Below are positions 55,798 to 64,000 of a DNA stretch of 64,000 nt, piece by piece. How positions within the stretch are numbered: the stretch's first letter is position 1; every line of letters starts with the position of its first letter. Source of the DNA: an uncultured Bdellovibrio sp. (GTDB lineage: Bacteria; Bdellovibrionota; Bdellovibrionia; Bdellovibrionales; Bdellovibrionaceae). Both the position numbers and the translations under genes were made by a program. The stretch is taken from NCBI GenBank assembly GCA_963932905.1, contig CAWVRN010000008.1, positions 1 through 64,000 of the forward strand, read 5' to 3'. Below the pieces are notes generated by a model that made no database searches, was not told the DNA's origin, and saw only the letters and a list, made by a program, of their open reading frames with translations.

Positions 55798-56049
55798 ATG
55801 TTATTTATGAACGTGAAGATTCATTTTCGCCGTTGCCACTGTTGTAATGAAGCGAATGAGTGCGTTGGTGATCTTGTTACAGAGTGTTTGGTTTGCGGCA
55901 AACGCCTATTGCCATTTTTATATTTCGATGAGCGTGTTGAATACGGATTTTCGCAATTAAAATCTAAAAAAGTAAAAGTGAAAACGATATTGCCTCATTC
56001 GGTTTATCCACCACTCGTTGGCATGTCGAGCGTTTGGGAAATAGAATAA
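55798..56049 (+). CDS. Small putative zinc-ribbon protein
   Basis: CHCC...CLVCGK Cys pairs; GAGAGG upstream; start could be 55807. Confidence 0.65.
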   Translation: MLFMNVKIHFRRCHCCNEANECVGDLVTECLVCGKRLLPFLYFDERVEYGFSQLKSKKVKVKTILPHSVYPPLVGMSSVWEIE

Positions 56050-56231: not shown

Positions 56232-57563
56232 ATGAAAAAGGGTTTACTGCTACTTTTTGTTTCTACAGTAGCATTTGGTTCTGGTTATGAAAAATCAGTT
56301 CTTTGGGGTGGTAAATATGCGGGCGTTGCTGGTTCCGCATCTGCGGGTGTTAGCGGTTCTGATTCCATATTTTATAATCCGGCCGGATTGGTGAATTCTC
56401 CAGAGTTAGGCGATATCACTTTCAATCTATCTAGCGGTTCGTCTCAGTTCAAAGGACCAATCGTTCCAAGTGCGAACGTAGTTTCTCCTGGGCCTTCGAT
56501 CGCGGCTTTCACAAACGCGAACAAACAAGAGTCGTCTAAAACGGCCCAAACTGTAGTTCCTGGCGTGACATACTCTATGAAACTAAATGATTCATGGTCT
56601 TATGGCTTGGGTTACTACGCAGTTGGCGGAACTCGCGCTGTGTATGAAGATGTTGATTTTGCACCAAGATCTTACAAAGCAAAAGTTGGTTCTGAAATCA
56701 CTATCACTGAATTTTCTGCTGGCGTTGGTTACAAAGTAAGCGAAGCTTTCAGATTAGGTTTAGGTCTACGTTACACAATGACAGATGCAAACTTTAGCTC
56801 TGTTGGATATGTGACTTCTGGTTCTAACGTTGTTGGTATTACGAACGTAGAAATCAAAGACATCAAAACAGCAAACTTAGACAGCGTTCGTTTAGGTATG
56901 CAATATGATGTTAGCGAAAACACTAAAGTTGGTTTGACTTTAAGAACTGAAACTAAAGTGAGCAAAACAGCCAAAGCATCTGGTACAGCGAACGTGTGTG
57001 GTGGCGGTGCGACTTGCCCTGCTATTGCAAACTTAACAATCGCAGAAGCCGACGTGAAAGTGGACACTGTGTTGCCAATGGCCATCAATTTGGGTGTTGA
57101 ACACAAATTGGCGGATACGTGGACTCTATACGGTGAACTTGTTCACACTGCTTACTCTACAATCGAGAAAGTTGACCTAGATGGATCTGTGACTGTTGGA
57201 ACTACAACATCAGCACTTCCTGACATCGATCAAAAATGGAAAGATCAATTGAATGTGAAATTGGCTGCTCAGTGGTCAGGTATGTCATGGCCAGTACGTT
57301 TTGGATACATTCATACGTCTGATGTTTCTAACAAACAATACGCACGTGCTTCATTCACTCCTCCGGGCGCTGCCGCGACTTACACTTTAGGTACTGGTCA
57401 ACAATTCAAAATCGGAGAATCACCTCTAGATTTCAATATTGCATTGGACTACACAACAGTTAAAGGTGATGGCGATGCTTCGGTTCAGCCTCTGTCAACG
57501 CCAGCAGGTTCCTACGAAGCAGCGTCTACAGCTATCCACACAGGTTTTGCTTACAAATTCTAA
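56232..57563 (+). CDS. OmpP1/FadL/TodX family outer-membrane transporter
   Basis: Signal peptide, GVAGS, SIFYNPAGL hatch motif, C-terminal GFAYKF. Confidence 0.88.
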   Translation: MKKGLLLLFVSTVAFGSGYEKSVLWGGKYAGVAGSASAGVSGSDSIFYNPAGLVNSPELGDITFNLSSGSSQFKGPIVPSANVVSPGPSIAAFTNANKQESSKTAQTVVPGVTYSMKLNDSWSYGLGYYAVGGTRAVYEDVDFAPRSYKAKVGSEITITEFSAGVGYKVSEAFRLGLGLRYTMTDANFSSVGYVTSGSNVVGITNVEIKDIKTANLDSVRLGMQYDVSENTKVGLTLRTETKVSKTAKASGTANVCGGGATCPAIANLTIAEADVKVDTVLPMAINLGVEHKLADTWTLYGELVHTAYSTIEKVDLDGSVTVGTTTSALPDIDQKWKDQLNVKLAAQWSGMSWPVRFGYIHTSDVSNKQYARASFTPPGAAATYTLGTGQQFKIGESPLDFNIALDYTTVKGDGDASVQPLSTPAGSYEAASTAIHTGFAYKF

Positions 57564-57577
57564 TTTGAAAGTTAAGA

Positions 57578-58801
57578 ATGAGTTCACTTAAAGTCGATAT
57601 TTCAGATATTCAAAAAGCACACGGGCTGTTAAAGCCCGTGATCAAGCATACAGATTTAGATTTGTCATTGTCTGCGAGTGAGCTCTACGGACGTAACGTT
57701 TATTTAAAGTTTGAAAATACGCAAAGAACAGGTTCCTTTAAAATTAGAGGGGCCTACAATAAAATCATGAATCTTTCGGCTGAAGAAAAAGCACGCGGTG
57801 TCGTTGCTAGTTCGGCTGGAAATCATGCTCAAGGGGTCGCCTTGAGTTCTAAATTAGCAGGCGTGCGATCAGTTATTGTCATGCCAGAAACCGCACCTTT
57901 GAATAAAATTTCAGCCACGAAACATTACGGCGGCGAAGTTATATTGAAAGGTGAAATCTACGATGATGCGTACGAATATGCCAAAGAACTAGAAAAAAAA
58001 GAAGGCTATACGTTTGTTCATCCCTACCAAGATTCTCACGTAATCGCAGGGCAGGGTACTATAGGGCTTGAGATTTTAACTCAGTTGCCCGACGTTGACA
58101 GCGTTATTGTTCCCATTGGTGGTGGCGGACTGATAAGCGGAATTAGTCTGGCGATTAAAGCATTGAAACCCACCTGCAAAATCTTTGGGGTTCAGTCCAA
58201 TCAGACTCCAGGCATGAGTCAGTTATTTAAACACCAACCAGCGGAACTGAAATTAAAGCGGATCACGACTATTGCTGACGGGATAGCCATCAAACGGCCA
58301 AGCCAGGAAATGTACAGTCAGTTTATTTCAAAATACGTGGATGATATCGTAACTGTATCCGATGATGAAATCGCCGAAGCCATCGTGTATTTGGTCGAGC
58401 GTATGAAAACGGTCACGGAAGGATCTGGGGCTGCGGGTTTTGCTGGTTTAATGAATCATAAGTTGGATTTTGGTAAAAACGTTTGTGTTTTACTGTGCGG
58501 TGGAAACATTGATTTGAATATCGTTTCTAAAGTCATAGAACGAGGTCAAATTAAACGCGGTAGACTAGCGAAAATGTCGGTAGTAGTCGAAGACATGCCA
58601 GGAAACTTGCAAAAATTAACTCAGATCATTGCGACAGAAAAAGCAAATATTCTGGAAGTAAACCATGATCGTTTAACTCATGGTTTATCATTACGTGAAA
58701 CTCGAATTGATTTCTTTTTAGAAACGAACAGTTTTGATCAGATTAAACGAATTGAAGCCGGTATTGAAAAGATCGGTGGCAAAGTTCTGCGCACAATCTA
58801 A
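57578..58801 (+). CDS. ilvA: Threonine ammonia-lyase with C-terminal ACT domain
   Basis: KFENTQRTGSFKIRGA (PLP Lys), SSAGNHAQG, PIGGGGLISG, CGGNID, DMPGNL. Confidence 0.93.
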   Translation: MSSLKVDISDIQKAHGLLKPVIKHTDLDLSLSASELYGRNVYLKFENTQRTGSFKIRGAYNKIMNLSAEEKARGVVASSAGNHAQGVALSSKLAGVRSVIVMPETAPLNKISATKHYGGEVILKGEIYDDAYEYAKELEKKEGYTFVHPYQDSHVIAGQGTIGLEILTQLPDVDSVIVPIGGGGLISGISLAIKALKPTCKIFGVQSNQTPGMSQLFKHQPAELKLKRITTIADGIAIKRPSQEMYSQFISKYVDDIVTVSDDEIAEAIVYLVERMKTVTEGSGAAGFAGLMNHKLDFGKNVCVLLCGGNIDLNIVSKVIERGQIKRGRLAKMSVVVEDMPGNLQKLTQIIATEKANILEVNHDRLTHGLSLRETRIDFFLETNSFDQIKRIEAGIEKIGGKVLRTI

Positions 58802-59082
58802 TGGCCGCTGCGCGCGATCTTTTTACCCAAAGAAATTTCAGATTTTAAACTGACTTCGTAGTCTTTGATTAATATCTGCATAACCATTTTTTCTGGTATG
58901 CCCAAAATAACAATTAGTTGCCCTAAAATATTATGAGGAACTTTAGACACGCCTCTTTCGAAAAGGGAAATAAACTGTGTTGAATCGTACCCAAGCTTTC
59001 TAGCTAGGTCTAACTGGGTCATGTCTTTATCTTGGCGATAATTTCTAATTAGTGAACCAAGTTCTTGGTACGTTTCGTTCAT
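58798..59082 (-). CDS. XRE-family HTH regulator (paralog A)
   Basis: MTQLDLARKLGYDSTQFISLFERG. Confidence 0.9.
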   Translation of the reverse strand: MNETYQELGSLIRNYRQDKDMTQLDLARKLGYDSTQFISLFERGVSKVPHNILGQLIVILGIPEKMVMQILIKDYEVSLKSEISLGKKIARSGH

Positions 59083-59151
59083 AGAGTTTCCCTTTTAATT
59101 TTTATCAGATCAATCTATCGAGAACGTTTTTTTTAAGCTAGTGGCTAAAAA

Positions 59152-59433
59152 CTACGCGTTTTTGGCTGTTTTTTTACCTGAAGAAATTTCAGATTTCAAG
59201 TTTACTTCGTAAGCTTTCATTAAAGTGTCTAAAACTTTTTTCTCTGGAATTCCAAGAATAACAATTAACTGACCTAAAACATTATTTGGAACTTTAGAAA
59301 GTCCACGTTCGAAAAGTGAAACGAATTGAGTTGAATCGTATCCAAGTTTTTCAGCCAGGTTGAGCTGTGTTAATTCTTTCTTAACTCTGTACTCTCTAAT
59401 TAGTGCACCTAGTTCGCGACGGACTTCTTTCAT
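59152..59433 (-). CDS. XRE-family HTH regulator (paralog B)
   Basis: LTQLNLAEKLGYDSTQFVSLFERG; GAGGT SD. Confidence 0.9.
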   Translation of the reverse strand: MKEVRRELGALIREYRVKKELTQLNLAEKLGYDSTQFVSLFERGLSKVPNNVLGQLIVILGIPEKKVLDTLMKAYEVNLKSEISSGKKTAKNA

Positions 59434-59647
59434 ATCTATACCTCAACTTGTAGTTGTTAATCCGATATCATATTCTGACATATCTATAGGCGTCAAGGGA
59501 AGTCGTTTTATCTTTAGATTGATATTTTACGGTCGGTGCCACATTTTCTGGTAAAACTTTTGTCTCAGACCAAGATCTTAACCGCAATTTAAATTGTTCC
59601 TAAGTATACGAAAGTTTAAGTTAATGTAAAGAAAATGAACGATAAAC

Positions 59648-59675
59648 TAATGTTATTTAGGTAATTTGCCGAATA
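59648..59675 (+). promoter_or_regulatory. Possible sigma28 promoter of ThiF-hydrolase operon
   Basis: TAATGTTA-N12-GCCGAATA. Confidence 0.4.
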
Positions 59676-59699
59676 GCCCTAAGCCAAGTCCAAACGGGA

Positions 59700-60578
59700 G
59701 TGAATGTAATGGAAACGTTTTCAAGGGACAACGATTATTGGGAAACCTATACTCGAAATTTCTCTATTATTTCTCGAAATCAGCAAGAGGGTATAAAAAA
59801 AATGAAAATCGCTGTTGGAGGTTGTGGCTCTACTGGAGGCGCTTTCATTGATGGCTTGCTGAGGTTGGGAGTCACGAAGTACCATCTAACTGACAACGGA
59901 TTATATGATCAGAGTAACCTCAATCGTCAAATGGTTAGCCGAAAAGATATTGGGAAAAATAAAGCTATAGTTTACGGTGAGCGTATAGCAGATATAAACC
60001 CCGACGCTTTAGTTAATACATGGTCTGAAGGTTTGACGGAAGCAAATATGGGTGAATTCTTAGATGATGTGGATTTTCTATTTGATGGCGTAGACGTGAC
60101 TACGAGCGACGGTATGAAAGCGAAGTTAGCGCTGCATGAGATGGCTGCCGAGCGTAAGATACCTACAGGCTCTGCACTTGATTTGGGATTTACCCAGTGG
60201 ATTCAAAGTTATAACTATCATACTGGTGACGCTGTTTTGCATGGTCGTTTGGATAAAGCCAAAAAAGCCACTAATCCCATTTCTTCAGTCCTAGAAGGTT
60301 TCATCAATTTAGAAGAGATACCCGACGGATTTATGAATGAGCTTTTGCGTTTTCTTAAAGAGCCTACCACGGGAGTTTCGCAAGTTTCGAGTGCCTGCTT
60401 TTTGTTATCTAGTCTTACCGCCCCTTATCTTTTATATTTTATAGAGCACAAAAAACTTCCTCCGTTAGTAGTGATTGATATCAAAAGTTTCTTTGAAACA
60501 AAAGAGCAACAAGAAGAAATTAAAGGCCAAGCGGCTAAAAGCTTGCCGTTAGTCCGACAAATTTTAGCAAAGTTATAA
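59700..60578 (+). CDS. ThiF/MoeB/E1-family adenylyltransferase
   Basis: GCGSTGG, D..YDQSNLNRQ, GKNKA, FDGVD; no C-terminal CxxC/rhodanese; start 59700 (GTG) or 59709. Confidence 0.88.
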   Translation: MNVMETFSRDNDYWETYTRNFSIISRNQQEGIKKMKIAVGGCGSTGGAFIDGLLRLGVTKYHLTDNGLYDQSNLNRQMVSRKDIGKNKAIVYGERIADINPDALVNTWSEGLTEANMGEFLDDVDFLFDGVDVTTSDGMKAKLALHEMAAERKIPTGSALDLGFTQWIQSYNYHTGDAVLHGRLDKAKKATNPISSVLEGFINLEEIPDGFMNELLRFLKEPTTGVSQVSSACFLLSSLTAPYLLYFIEHKKLPPLVVIDIKSFFETKEQQEEIKGQAAKSLPLVRQILAKL

Positions 60579-60587
60579 AAGAGCAAT

Positions 60588-61373
60588 ATGGCTAAATCAA
60601 ATTTAAGGTATCTGTTTCTACATTATGGTCCCGGAGGCAACGCCGCCTTGGAACGTATATGGTTAAAAAATTGGAGCTCGAAAATTGATTTTTGGGATCA
60701 GCCCACAAACCTAGGTTCATTTTCCGATTTAGCATCACATTGTGCCGATCAATTTAAATCAGGAAACTACGACGGAATTATCGCTCACAGTTTTGGTTGC
60801 GAGATTGCGGTTAAGGTTAATGAATTGGTAGGAGAAAACATTAAATCCTATTTCATTTCTCCTCTCAGAGATATTCCGTCAGCATTTATAAATTTAGCAA
60901 ATTTTCTGGCCAAATCAGCCCTATCGATTGAAAGAAAAACTCAGCTGATAGAAGTGTCAGCGCAAATGGAAAAAACGCCTAATTGGATGCCGAAAAAGAA
61001 CCTCTCGTCGGAAGGGATGGCAAATTTTATTAAATTAATTTCTACTATCAGTGCAGATCCGAAATATTACCGTTGTTTTTGGAGCAAGTCAGAATGTTTA
61101 GCTCGTTACGAAAGTATTCTAACTCAGTTACCGCCATTGGATTTAACATGCTGGCAAAATGTAATGATGGATTTTCTGGGAAATCATCAAATTTCAATAC
61201 AAAAAAATAACCTCCATGTCTTTGTTGGGAGTGATGATCCTTATTTAGGATTGACTCGAGACGAGCAACTATATTGGGAAAATTTGGAAGCCAAATTTTC
61301 TTTATGTGAAAAAGTGGGACACTACCCTCATCTGGAATCTGAACTAGTTAATAACCTTCTTAAATCTATTTAG
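60588..61373 (+). CDS. Alpha/beta hydrolase (thioesterase/esterase-like)
   Basis: HYGPGG oxyanion loop, AHSFG nucleophile, GSDDP acid, GHYPH His. Confidence 0.85.
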   Translation: MAKSNLRYLFLHYGPGGNAALERIWLKNWSSKIDFWDQPTNLGSFSDLASHCADQFKSGNYDGIIAHSFGCEIAVKVNELVGENIKSYFISPLRDIPSAFINLANFLAKSALSIERKTQLIEVSAQMEKTPNWMPKKNLSSEGMANFIKLISTISADPKYYRCFWSKSECLARYESILTQLPPLDLTCWQNVMMDFLGNHQISIQKNNLHVFVGSDDPYLGLTRDEQLYWENLEAKFSLCEKVGHYPHLESELVNNLLKSI

Positions 61374-61443
61374 CAGAATCCTTTGACTCATCTTGAAGCA
61401 GAACTTTGATTGTCTAATTGTTATTCAATTCAAGTAAATTTAT

Positions 61444-61470
61444 TTATGTTAAGCAAAATTATGCCGATAC
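61444..61470 (+). promoter_or_regulatory. Possible sigma28 promoter of the acyltransferase gene
   Basis: TTATGTTA-N11-GCCGATAC. Confidence 0.5.
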
Positions 61471-61548
61471 TTTAGTCTGTGAAACCATTTTGGAACCATT
61501 AGTTTTATTTTAATGGAGTTTAACTAATTTCAAACAAGGGGTGGCAAC

Positions 61549-62322
61549 ATGAAGCAAAGTTTAGGGCGTTTTAGACTTGTTATTTTGGACTGCGTTAAGA
61601 ATCAAATGATGAACCCAGCGGTGCAAAAAATTCTTAATGATGTCATTTTGTTTAAACAAACTAATTTCGAGCGTTCACGTCCTGACTATGTCACTCTCGA
61701 TAAACAGGATATGATAGGCACTCACTATTTGATTTATGATATAAGTGATGTGTTTCAGCCTAAATTAGTTGTAGCCATCCGGTCGACTTATGAAGCTCGA
61801 GCCAAAGAGTACCAATTGAAAACTCCATTTCTTGATATGTTGCCAGGACTACCAGAAAAATGTCAGACCGCCTACGCTGACTTTAAAAAATTACATCCCA
61901 TGGTTGCAGATTGCGGTGCGCTGGCTGTTGAAAGTAATTATACGTTCCATAACACGGGGTTAAAGCTAATACATATTTGTTATGCGATGATTTATATTCA
62001 TGTTACCCGCATGGGTTACACAAGTATTCTTGGTGGCACTAACGAACGATTTAGGTCGTCGAGATGGCTCGAAGATATTGGTTCATACACCAGAGGCTTG
62101 GAGTTTATTCATCCTGTGTGGCCAGGCACCCATTTGCTAATCATGATCGAGAAATTCAATGTGCCTAGTATTAAATCGATTTGTAAAGAAAACGAAGTGT
62201 TGTTCAGAAATATTCAAGAATTTGTGCCCAAGGATGTTGGGTATCTAGATATTCATGCGGCAATAGATGATTTGATTTTCAACGACACAACGACAGCGAA
62301 ACATTTAAAATTAGTCAGTTAG
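61549..62322 (+). CDS. GNAT-fold acyltransferase, LuxI/FeeM (N-acyl amino acid or AHL synthase)-like
   Basis: K..NF...LDKQD..GTHYLIYD...VVAIRST pattern echoes LuxI/FeeM R..F..ExDxxD..Y/H.L...R; later DCGALAV strand; remote, by-eye similarity. Confidence 0.55.
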   Translation: MKQSLGRFRLVILDCVKNQMMNPAVQKILNDVILFKQTNFERSRPDYVTLDKQDMIGTHYLIYDISDVFQPKLVVAIRSTYEARAKEYQLKTPFLDMLPGLPEKCQTAYADFKKLHPMVADCGALAVESNYTFHNTGLKLIHICYAMIYIHVTRMGYTSILGGTNERFRSSRWLEDIGSYTRGLEFIHPVWPGTHLLIMIEKFNVPSIKSICKENEVLFRNIQEFVPKDVGYLDIHAAIDDLIFNDTTTAKHLKLVS

Positions 62323-63213
62323 TGAATCTCTATTTTTTACCAAGTGCATGTGTCTGCTTTCGGCGGCGGGAAAATTGAACGTATAGTCACAGTGAATGCC
62401 GTCGGAAGTGTAATTGACTTTGTACTCGGGTAAAGATGGCGCTAAATTAGAAAGATAAGGAAACCAGCCGGCCAAAATTAAACGGTAGCGCAAAACTTTA
62501 TCTACATTTTTTTTACTAAAATCAATGTGAGCATGATTGTCGTAATCTAAAAAAGTAGTCACTTTAAAGCTTGTGCGATCTAAATCCGTCGTAATTCTAA
62601 AATTATTGTCTAGATTTTTAAAATTTTTAGAAACGACTTCGTAGCACTCGTAATAGTTACGAGCTTTGCTGAACTCGGCAAGCATCTGTGGTGTTTGATC
62701 AAGACTTAAAAACATCACGCAAGCCAATTGGTCTAGGTCACTTTGTTTGAAACCATGGTCCGTTAAGATGTCCAGCAAATCGATAAAATAGTTCAGGCTA
62801 ATTTTATTATTAAGATCTGAATAAATTAATGGTGAAACATTCAGTTTGCGTGCAATCATATCGCTAAAATGCTGTCCATATTTTAATGTAAGATATTTAA
62901 AAATATGGGCAGAGGAACGTAAATAGCTATATTTATTTTGAGTGTATTTCTCGGGCATGACACCATCGCCAGAAAACAAGATAGAGCGAACAAAGTTTTT
63001 GTCGTATGTCCCTTCTAGGATAGTGTCTTCATTAATATGAAGATACTGTCCTAATTGAACAAACTGAGCTTTTTTGATCACGCGCGATCGATAGCCAGAC
63101 CACCAGTCTAAGAATGTAAGTGGCGATAAGCCTAAAGCCTCAGGAGCGCGATTCAGAGGCAATCCGACATCTTTAATAAAATCACGTAGTTTTTTATCTT
63201 TGGAAGAACCCAT
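62311..63213 (-). CDS. Putative regulator: N-terminal XRE-like HTH + AraC-N/H-NOX-V4R-like ligand-binding domain
   Basis: ALGLSPLTFLDWWSG...LGQYLHINEDTIL HTH; KLNVSPLIYSDLNNKISLNYFIDLL resembles Arabinose_bd_2 type domains. Confidence 0.5.
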   Translation of the reverse strand: MGSSKDKKLRDFIKDVGLPLNRAPEALGLSPLTFLDWWSGYRSRVIKKAQFVQLGQYLHINEDTILEGTYDKNFVRSILFSGDGVMPEKYTQNKYSYLRSSAHIFKYLTLKYGQHFSDMIARKLNVSPLIYSDLNNKISLNYFIDLLDILTDHGFKQSDLDQLACVMFLSLDQTPQMLAEFSKARNYYECYEVVSKNFKNLDNNFRITTDLDRTSFKVTTFLDYDNHAHIDFSKKNVDKVLRYRLILAGWFPYLSNLAPSLPEYKVNYTSDGIHCDYTFNFPAAESRHMHLVKNRDSLTD

Positions 63214-63499
63214 CGATTTCCCTTAAAAAATTTAGAATATTTTCCACGTGAGTGATTTTGCTCAAATTTAATATCTCGTCTTTGTCCATTTGCATTACTG
63301 TAGCGATAGTTTCAAATTCGTTTTGAGAAAGGCGTTTTCGGCCCGATTCAATCATTTTAACTTCCTTAAGTGTCAGGCCTGTTTCTTCAGCGATATTTTC
63401 CGAAGTCAAATTAAGTACACCCTTTTGGCGCTTTACATACAGGCCAAAGAGGCGCCCGAATTCACGTTTGTTAAATTGGTTTAAAGTCTCTAAAATCAT
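63194..63499 (-). CDS. XRE-family HTH regulator
   Basis: LTSENIAEETGLTLKEVKMIESGRK; overlaps start of next gene by 20 bp. Confidence 0.85.
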   Translation of the reverse strand: MILETLNQFNKREFGRLFGLYVKRQKGVLNLTSENIAEETGLTLKEVKMIESGRKRLSQNEFETIATVMQMDKDEILNLSKITHVENILNFLREIDGFFQR

Positions 63500-63679
63500 T
63501 GAACCTATCCCTATCTAGGAACTTCTCTAGGTCCTAAGATAAGGGATGGGGCAAAATTCATCAATAGATTTCTACCTAAAGATAAAGGCGGGCCTCGAAA
63601 GGCGCGAGAGCCTATTAGAGCAAATTCCTTGGGTGAATGAGTACTTTTTAGACAGGAAAATTCTTTAGGCTTTGGGTCT

Positions 63680-64000
63680 CTACGCGGCGATCGGTTGCTC
63701 TTTGGCAGGGTTTTTGGCAAGGGTCCGTGGGTCAAAAAGAGAGGGAGCTAAATGGTGGTTTTTGTGAAAGTAGAGTCCAAATGCGATGGCATTTACAAAT
63801 CGATAGAACAACTGGGTATTCAGATTTTGAATTTCGGCAGAGTTTTGCATAGGGCGGTGGGTAGAGTAGTTGAACCAAGCATAATGAAACATTTTAAATA
63901 CGATCGAAGACAAAAATAGGAAAGTAAATAACTGAGGACCAAGTAGTAATAGCCAAAATAGGACTCGTGCGCACTGATCCAATTTGGCGGCTTGACCAAA
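63680..64000 (-). CDS. Membrane fatty-acid desaturase family protein (3-prime part; runs off window)
   Basis: Frame open to 64000; TM segment, WFNYSTH and FHKNHH third His box. Confidence 0.78.
   Translation of the reverse strand, partial: FGQAAKLDQCARVLFWLLLLGPQLFTFLFLSSIVFKMFHYAWFNYSTHRPMQNSAEIQNLNTQLFYRFVNAIAFGLYFHKNHHLAPSLFDPRTLAKNPAKEQPIAA

Follow-up and report, generated by a model that had tools for sequence, protein, structure and literature searches.

The closest described relatives of the locus reported here are the acyl-oxazolone pathways. OxzA N-acylates tyrosine, after which OxzB, through its ThiF domain, adenylates the carboxylate and an oxazolone forms by cyclisation (PMC12596934). 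The same chemistry is described in mycobacteria for TyzA/TyzB/TyzC and TrzA/TrzS, where TyzB is a stand-alone ThiF-like cyclase and desaturation is carried out by a nitroreductase-family oxidase (PMC12856293), and the same gene trio is reported from producers of N-acyl dehydrotyrosines (PMC12479983). According to a 2025 review, ThiF-like enzymes are best known in pathways to ribosomally synthesized and post-translationally modified peptides (RiPPs), can form thiolactones and oxazolones through carboxylate activation, and count OxzB as the only validated member acting on a small molecule (PMC12596934). A role as stress signals is considered possible for the oxazolones, which are reported to undergo hydrolysis in a matter of hours and for which no phenotype was found (10.1101/2020.06.11.147165). 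A survey of 82 Bdellovibrionota genomes and five metagenome-assembled genomes (MAGs) reports no predicted homologues of acyl-homoserine lactone synthases (preprint 10.1101/2020.11.01.364414). Here we describe a gene module related to the oxazolone pathways in an uncultured Bdellovibrio sp. (assembly GCA_963932905.1), whose predatory lifestyle we take from its taxonomy. The window, the 64,000-nt stretch that was analysed, takes up the first 64 kb of a contig 130 kb long (CAWVRN010000008.1) in a draft genome of 4.55 Mb that is 98.6% complete; DNA past position 64000 of the contig was read too (locus L001).

The core of the module consists of a GNAT-type acyltransferase gene, a regulator gene whose product is a candidate sensor (with the small XRE-type gene xre3), a ThiF-like gene and a hydrolase gene, and it recurs in four families of one order. 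Our preferred reading, held with moderate confidence, is of an accessory module in which the GNAT would make an N-acyl amino acid, the ThiF-like enzyme would activate or cyclise it with ATP, the hydrolase would process the outcome, and the convergent regulator would sense a lipid of the pathway. The comparison rests on 22 related loci from other genomes, all picked for the GNAT gene, 16 of them from the same family and six from three other families.

What the module has in common with OxzAB (Pseudoalteromonas rubra) and with TyzABC and TrzAS (Mycobacterium tuberculosis and relatives), as these are described, is an N-acyltransferase with a ThiF neighbour, a pairing found here in 19 of the 22 loci. 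The first-pass annotation of this DNA had drawn the OxzAB analogy on this ground, and it was the right closest precedent (PMC12596934, PMC12856293). TyzB and the ThiF of the locus are both stand-alone proteins, a likeness to TyzB and OxzB that we draw from the published descriptions. Unlike the oxazolone pathways, the locus has no nitroreductase-type oxidase, fused or adjacent, and couples a serine hydrolase to ThiF; it adds a dedicated regulator combining a helix–turn–helix (HTH) with an H-NOX-like domain, and a ThiF-hydrolase cassette that is swapped between strains; and its acyltransferase belongs to a separate family that Pfam does not recognise. A dedicated sensor is not mentioned in the published descriptions that we compared of characterised acyl-oxazolone systems. 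Within the acyl-amino-acid and oxazolone kind, the sensor architecture and the strain-variable cassette are what is new here. Our literature search found no paper linking Bdellovibrio with ThiF plus acyltransferase, nor any describing such a module.

The GNAT gene (61549–62322, plus strand) encodes 257 residues with no Pfam or NCBIfam match at E ≤ 0.1. An AlphaFold2 model built on a 19-sequence alignment (pLDDT 87.8) gave its best Foldseek matches to BjaI, RpaI, EsaI, FeeM, MesI and LasI (E 4e-6 to 1e-4; FeeM 6.5e-5). VIA-align scored RpaI at Z 17.7 (root-mean-square deviation (rmsd) 3.0, 201 aligned), BjaI at 16.5, LasI at 15.2, MesI at 15.0, TofI at 14.9 and FeeM (2g0b) at 14.4 (rmsd 3.4, 176 aligned), with ordinary GNATs at about 12–13 over about 145 residues. 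As modelled, the protein has the extended LuxI/FeeM form of the GNAT fold. The family is small, with 19 clusters in a set of 5.8 billion proteins and 73 representatives (E ≤ 0.001) in a set of 1.84 billion. Its profile retrieved distant relatives of which 4 of 37 match PF13444 (E < 0.01); one distant relative, P0044 (E 1.6e-25 to the family profile), exceeds the PF13444 cut-off. The exosortase N-acyl amino acid synthase model TIGR03694 is weakly matched by 5 of 20 distant relatives. The fold is thus common to FeeM and NasY (PF13444, Acetyltransf_5), and the distant relatives reach PF13444 and TIGR03694, but the locus protein itself is unmatched. Because the fold is joined by these sequence links and by no match to a LuxI model, we class the protein with the LuxI/FeeM fold and regard N-acyl amino acid synthesis as its most likely activity. 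A search of solved structures by sequence with the family profile gave chance-level matches only (E > 0.5).

Three canonical PF13444 genes sit elsewhere in the source genome. The closest named relatives of the GNAT are in the metagenome-assembled Bdellovibrio sp. 28-41-41 (89% identity), UBA2316 and UBA2351; others are in Bdellovibrio sp. qaytius, Bdellovibrio sp. HCB337 and Pseudobdellovibrio MAGs. One genome that holds the full module (G014) has in addition a weak second match to the GNAT profile (E 1.8e-6), at 380668–381063 of its contig 1 in a 300-residue open frame.

Convergent with the GNAT gene, and sharing 12 nt with it at the 3′ ends, is the regulator gene (62311–63213, minus strand), present in a single copy in the genome. 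Its 300-residue product has no Pfam or NCBIfam match at E ≤ 0.1, HNOB included. In the AlphaFold2 model (pLDDT 83.3), residues 1–69 resemble XRE HTH proteins (DdrO and controller proteins; Z about 6). Residues 96–290 align with Shewanella H-NOX (Z 11.7, 175 aligned), Nostoc H-NOX (11.3), the ligand domain of VirS (10.7) and CdpR (7.8), unrelated chains scoring about 7 or less. Two histidines, His103 and His227, are invariant in the family. Known members of the H-NOX/VirS-type domain hold haem or hydrophobic ligands. By its predicted fold the protein is a one-component regulator with an N-terminal XRE HTH and a C-terminal H-NOX/VirS-like domain of ligand-binding type. The AraC-family regulators VirS (M. 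tuberculosis) and CdpR (Pseudomonas aeruginosa) likewise join an H-NOX-type ligand domain to a DNA-binding domain in one polypeptide, but in reversed order, with a C-terminal AraC HTH in place of the N-terminal XRE HTH found here; neither Arabinose_bd nor HNOB of Pfam matches the locus regulator. The small XRE-type HTH gene xre3 (63194–63499, minus strand; 101 residues) lies upstream, with a 20-nt overlap onto the start of the regulator gene that makes co-transcription of the two probable. Its protein has weak matches, below cut-offs, to HTH_19, HTH_3 and HTH_31 (E 2e-4 to 6e-4).

The ThiF-like gene (59709–60578, plus strand) encodes 289 residues from the ATG at 59709, in an open reading frame (ORF) that opens at a GTG at 59700; Pfam ThiF matches at E 5.2e-27, and a database protein of 289 residues is 100% identical over 99% of the query. 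The best NCBIfam model, NF006077, scores 103 bits, which is below its cut-off of 266; the family of Rv1355c (TrzS) also matches (E 4.8e-17). Equivalog models for ThiF and MoeB score 37–69 bits against cut-offs of 152–449, and the TcdA model is also far below its cut-off. All 27 aligned ThiF sequences keep the glycine-rich ATP loop and the NLNRQ and D..DVT motifs without variation, and the same alignment has no invariant cysteine beyond C39 of the glycine-rich loop and no CxxC zinc motif. Sulfur-carrier and ubiquitin-like Pfam families are unmatched by any locus ORF scanned. Since the ATP motifs are kept, the catalytic cysteine and zinc motif are absent and the scores fall far below the ThiF, MoeB and TcdA cut-offs, we prefer a carboxylate activator: the profile fits a small-molecule enzyme better than a sulfur-carrier E1. 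By analogy, we propose that it activates or cyclises an N-acyl amino acid in the manner of TyzB or OxzB.

Two longer ThiF homologues were found, and neither is a ThiF-nitroreductase fusion, which is weak evidence. One of them, of 523 residues, was considered as a fusion with module enzymes and set aside, its N-terminal part being unrelated to GNAT or hydrolase. The genome encodes a second NF006077-like ThiF (contig 12 of the source genome, 62869–63747; 6870–7748 of stored locus L053), with a Pfam E of 3.5e-41 and 33% identity over 145 residues to the locus ThiF. Flanked by a TatD-type gene and a methyltransferase, it probably serves tRNA modification and is unrelated to the locus. A literature search for PRK08223 returned no papers.

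Exactly 9 nt downstream of ThiF begins the hydrolase gene (60588–61373, plus strand; 261 residues). Pfam yields a match at E 0.09 only, but the sequence carries the marks of an alpha/beta-fold Ser-Asp-His hydrolase: the oxyanion-hole motif H12-x-G-P-G, the H67-S68-F-G nucleophile elbow, Asp217 and G-His245 are invariant in all nine orthologues, and the orthologue at L025 matches alpha/beta hydrolase models of NCBIfam, down to E 8e-10. A complex prediction for ThiF with the hydrolase scored 0.00, which is uninformative either way.

The first-pass annotation had named a LuxI/FeeM-like acyltransferase, an alpha/beta hydrolase coupled to ThiF, and an HTH protein with a ligand-binding domain that is not of LuxR type. 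Structure prediction and fold search bear out the first (RpaI Z 17.7, FeeM Z 14.4); the invariant triad and the joint inheritance and replacement of the pair agree with the second; and fold comparison upholds the third, no LuxR-type Pfam match being present among the locus ORFs scanned.

Of 182 genomes from the same family, 24 carry a member of the GNAT family. In the phylum at large, a sample of 401 genomes gave 16 strong matches, all in the same order and including three other families, and seven further weak ones. Among 44 complete genomes of the genus labelled g4, four have the GNAT; the module is accessory, being missing from most of them. ThiF lies within about 3 kb of the GNAT gene in 19 of the 22 related loci, and in all 19 a serine hydrolase adjoins it: 15 are homologues of the 261-residue protein, one is a distant Abhydrolase_6/1 type and three (L028, L031 and L032) are PF00756 esterases in its place. 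The sensor is present in 18 loci, adjacent to and convergent with the GNAT gene in every one, and the 3′ ends of the two overlap by 4–47 nt in all 12 ORF-resolved loci, as they do in the window. All six loci of other families keep GNAT, sensor, ThiF and hydrolase. The order and strand of the ThiF, hydrolase and XRE genes vary between genera, and since GNAT, sensor, ThiF and hydrolase genes are found together in further genera and families despite rearranged order and orientation, their grouping goes beyond chance.

Three loci lack ThiF (L022 8725–11790, L023 9494–12654 and, in Bdellovibrio sp. qaytius, L024 6767–9794), and with it the hydrolase and the sensor. In these the GNAT gene stands beside a desaturase of 324–331 residues (PF00487, E about 3e-29), a conserved protein of 247–251 residues and one small XRE gene. 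The protein of about 250 residues was tried as a relative of the sensor and rejected (profile comparison probability 0.4%); it has a PAS-like lead only (atlas, 0.94). The locus of Bdellovibrio sp. HCB337 (L031 45–9003) also has no sensor. Two long ORFs (1,763 and 1,214 residues) take its place, and ThiF and a PF00756 esterase are kept.

A membrane fatty-acid-desaturase-family gene follows xre3 in our contig (63680–64573, minus strand; 297 residues), of which 63680–64000, encoding the C-terminal 106 residues, lies in the window; the full protein matches FA_desaturase at E 1.9e-17. Desaturases occur in 6 of the 22 loci and are of two non-orthologous types, the type in the window being confined to three loci of the same genus. 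We take the desaturase as an optional neighbour that recurs outside the core, and the pathway role first given to it is not supported. The observation behind the first-pass annotation holds: all ORFs, the 9-nt gap and the absence of housekeeping genes from the stretch were confirmed, and the genes do co-occur in other genomes, which removes the first of the grounds that the annotation named for its refutation. Its interpretation, a desaturated N-acyl amide or cyclised derivative that is turned over by the hydrolase and sensed by a non-LuxR receptor, is supported in part.

The ThiF-hydrolase pair has a history of its own. Trees were built from the window copy and 13 (ThiF), 16 (GNAT) and 12 (sensor) of the first 16 loci, the six loci of other families being left out. 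The trees of GNAT and sensor are congruent with one another and follow genus, whereas the ThiF tree is discordant: it has two deep clades, on branches of 3.3 and 4.0 changes per site, each with members from the genera labelled g1, g4 and g39. Hydrolase identity to the window copy tracks the ThiF clade (31–47% against 19–25%). Along the alignment with four same-genus genomes, nucleotide identity drops only at about 59.8–61.4 kb, from about 85% to 37–69% (G170 and G178) and from 70–85% to 30–60% (G172). Between the source genome and G170, the nonsynonymous rate dN is 0.25 for ThiF and 0.46 for the hydrolase, and 0.014–0.13 for 13 neighbouring genes; dN alone is given because synonymous sites are saturated and dN/dS is uninformative.

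Borders of the replaced segment were seen in public groundwater and biofilm metagenomes. In run X1, a 1,940-nt contig fits 58555–59658 and a 738-nt contig fits 61426–61784, the remainder of each being unlike the window; in run X6, from a different study, a contig leaves at 59658 with the same 30 letters as the X1 contig. The contigs that depart at the cassette borders are near-identical to the flanks. The border evidence consists of contigs leaving at 59658 and 61426 only; in none of the four DNA runs does a contig lie on 59808–61211, and the missing cover there is no finding. The two 30-letter loose ends have no exact match in 59 stored loci. In another genome, G174, the whole module has diverged (GNAT 45%, sensor 46% and xre3 30% identity) and ilvA and hisC stay at 84–86%; with the cassette swap, this makes the island variable at two nested levels. 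On these sequence comparisons the ThiF-hydrolase pair behaves as a replaceable cassette, swapped as a unit between close strains, and because it is replaceable, the end products formed from a similar N-acyl amino acid probably differ between related strains.

Two intergenic segments beside the cassette deserve mention. The spacer upstream of the GNAT gene (61418–61513) is conserved in same-genus genomes even where the cassette is replaced, and has the metagenome breakpoint at 61426 on its left margin; we regard this spacer as a candidate site for a promoter or operator. At the other side, a 16-nt direct repeat, 88% identical and 48 nt apart (59425–59488), covers the start of xre2 and the spacer toward ThiF, and may be an operator. 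A repeat search at the locus gave no convincing operator palindrome. Promoter and terminator scans gave 13 and 5 sites against 14.3 and 4.1 expected, and an Rfam scan (E ≤ 0.1) found nothing specific at the locus.

From folds, motifs, adjacency and the evolutionary pattern we infer the chemistry, the ligand of the sensor and any signalling role, as follows. The GNAT would move an acyl chain from acyl carrier protein (ACP) or coenzyme A onto the amino group of an amino acid. The ThiF-like enzyme, by analogy with TyzB, OxzB and TrzS, would adenylate the free carboxylate of the N-acyl amino acid, and the activated group would cyclise (to a saturated oxazolone, or to a lactone or lactam if a side chain attacks) or be handed on. 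The coupled serine hydrolase would then hydrolyse the activated or cyclised species or pass the N-acyl-aminoacyl group to an acceptor. Finally, the XRE-HTH/H-NOX-like protein may bind a hydrophobic ligand (most likely what the GNAT makes, or something derived from it) and control the locus along with xre3 and xre1/2; its fold, invariable adjacency and congruent tree suggest as much. That the hydrolase turns a signal over, and that the module has a quorum-sensing-like function, is conjecture.

Several observations weigh against this scheme. No nitroreductase-type oxidase is found among the 15 ORFs scanned (contig 56232–69054). As the known pathways need that oxidase, an unsaturated oxazolone of the OxzB type is not to be expected here, and a saturated oxazolone would be labile. 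The ThiF score is well under the trusted cut-off of every NCBIfam model. PF13444 does not match the 257-residue protein at E ≤ 0.1, or the locus at E ≤ 1 in a genome scan, and the best structural matches of the GNAT are synthases of N-acyl-homoserine lactones (AHLs), not FeeM. The GNAT can evidently work without the rest, since the three ThiF-less loci keep the GNAT with a desaturase but have no ThiF, hydrolase or sensor. The 22 loci are mutually related and are not independent samples. Lastly, the sensor stays 84–94% identical where the cassette is replaced, so that its ligand may not be the cassette product, or any product of the locus. This lack of co-variation argues against the simplest model, in which the cassette sets the ligand of the sensor; the most economical reading is that the sensor senses the GNAT product and the cassette diversifies its derivatives.

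The same constancy of the sensor across swapped cassettes counts in favour of another account, unlikely in our view yet with some weight, that the module makes a regulated antimicrobial, membrane or prey-directed lipid and that the HTH/H-NOX-like protein senses some other cue, be it haem, a gas or a hydrophobic compound from prey or the environment, and turns production on. The fold of H-NOX is familiar above all from haem-based gas sensors, N-acyl amino acids were, to judge from the title of a cited reference, first found as antibiotics, and the function of the oxazolones is still unknown according to their authors (10.1101/2020.06.11.147165). The account sits poorly, however, with a sensor gene that adjoins the GNAT gene and converges on it in all 18 loci that have it, overlaps it at the 3′ end and follows a congruent tree, a pattern expected of a synthase and its cognate receptor. 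Nor does Pfam HNOB match the regulator, and the core is without an exporter or resistance gene.

A second alternative takes the structural ranking at face value: RpaI, BjaI, LasI, MesI and TofI (Z 14.9–17.7) all stand above FeeM (14.4), and the GNAT would then have true LuxI chemistry, making an AHL or related lactone from S-adenosylmethionine or another amine donor, with ThiF re-closing the ring at the cost of ATP, the hydrolase as a lactonase and the HTH/H-NOX-like protein in place of LuxR. Convergent synthase-receptor gene pairs do occur among luxI/luxR systems. The thiolactone and oxazolone formation attributed to ThiF-like enzymes would also suit ring closure (PMC12596934). The locus resembles LuxI/LuxR in its fold (Z up to 17.7) and in an adjacent regulator that joins a ligand-binding domain to an HTH, but differs in having an XRE HTH and H-NOX/VirS-like domain instead of the autoinducer-binding and GerE domains, and in its additional ThiF and hydrolase. 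Autoind_synth (PF00765) matches neither the 257-residue protein at E ≤ 0.1 nor the locus in a six-frame genome scan at E ≤ 1, the distant sequence relatives lead to PF13444 and TIGR03694 rather than to LuxI, and Z differences of about 3 units cannot separate two sister folds. We regard LuxI chemistry here as improbable.

It is more improbable still, and by a good way, that the module is a peptide system of RiPP or microcin-C-like type, in which a small ribosomal peptide is adenylated at its C-terminus by ThiF, while modification or self-immunity falls to GNAT and hydrolase. The idea draws on the prominence of ThiF-like enzymes in RiPP pathways (PMC12596934) and on a hypervariable cassette of the sort typical of bacteriocin loci. 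Set against this are 12 small ORFs (at least 10 residues) in four intergenic regions, none of them matched (E < 0.01) outside the genus; a ThiF ATP loop that begins at residue 38 and so leaves no room for an N-terminal peptide-binding domain; and a core with no transporter. A ThiF, an acetyltransferase and a serine peptidase together are reminiscent of the mcc operon, but the GNAT here belongs with the long LuxI/FeeM enzymes and not with RimL-type acetyltransferases. Hardly credible is an island for anti-phage defence or a toxin-antitoxin system, centred on an E1-like enzyme with XRE proteins resembling antitoxins: the locus is accessory and variable, the small XRE proteins weakly match antitoxin and controller-protein models and ThiF matches the E1 part of models of Cap2 type from cyclic-oligonucleotide-based anti-phage signalling systems (CBASS; E 3e-13), but the PADLOC matches span the generic Rossmann part only and are weaker than NF006077, the other four enzymes and regulators have no PADLOC match, no E2 or JAB domain, cyclase or effector is present, and GC content is the same as in the flanks.

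The remaining genes of the locus lie around this core. Two small XRE-type HTH genes on the minus strand, xre1 (58798–59082; 94 residues) and xre2 (59152–59433; 93 residues), are tandem paralogues that form a direct repeat (D1; 75% DNA identity over 245 nt), xre2 being divergent from the ThiF gene across a 275-nt spacer; the spacer between hydrolase and GNAT genes is 175 nt. The xre1 protein has weak matches, below Pfam cut-offs, to HTH_31 (E 4.9e-5) and HTH_3 (E 1.7e-4), and xre2 reaches 27.8 bits with HTH_31, over the cut-off of 27, and is 93–95% identical at the amino-acid level in same-genus genomes. Genes like xre1/2 stand beside the GNAT gene in 16 of the 22 related loci; with the BLAST thresholds applied, 12 of the 22 have xre3 upstream of the sensor gene.

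On the left the locus is bounded by ilvA, which ends at 58801 (TIGR01127, 476 bits). On the right the first housekeeping gene is hisC, at contig position 67948, with cmk and rpsA beyond. Between the desaturase gene and hisC, within 64779–67898 of the contig (L001 8779–11898), are a receiver-like ORF of 141 residues (Response_reg, E 0.04) and, after it, a co-directional pair of hydantoinase-like genes of very divergent sequence (B-like, 462 residues, E 0.003; A-like, 455 residues, E 2.5e-9), conserved in same-genus synteny only. Directly upstream of ilvA is a gene for a FadL/TodX-family outer-membrane transporter of hydrophobic compounds (56232–57563, plus strand; Toluene_X, E 3e-26), which we left out of the module because it is syntenic within the genus only. 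Upstream of that gene, an 83-residue ORF (55798–56049, plus strand) has several CxxC-type cysteine pairs.

To our knowledge, no self-produced signal is known for Bdellovibrio-type predators. A LuxI-fold family that profile searches miss, wired to a ligand-binding regulator of its own, offers a concrete pair of synthase and candidate receptor, and the locus could give an experimental handle on the role of acyl-oxazolone and N-acyl amino acid lipids. The ThiF-hydrolase pair without an oxidase points to small-molecule chemistry of ThiF beyond the single example that a 2025 review calls validated (PMC12596934), and its cassette-like exchange among close strains suggests that the end product is under diversifying selection. 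A bolder extension, which we think doubtful, is a strain-polymorphic lipid signalling in "dialects", in which the LuxI-fold synthase and the XRE/H-NOX-like receptor are cognate and the cassette makes strain-specific cyclised or transferred derivatives. If this were true, near-identical Bdellovibrio strains would produce different molecules for kin discrimination, interference or prey manipulation, in analogy to the pherotypes of peptide quorum sensing but by ATP-dependent small-molecule chemistry.

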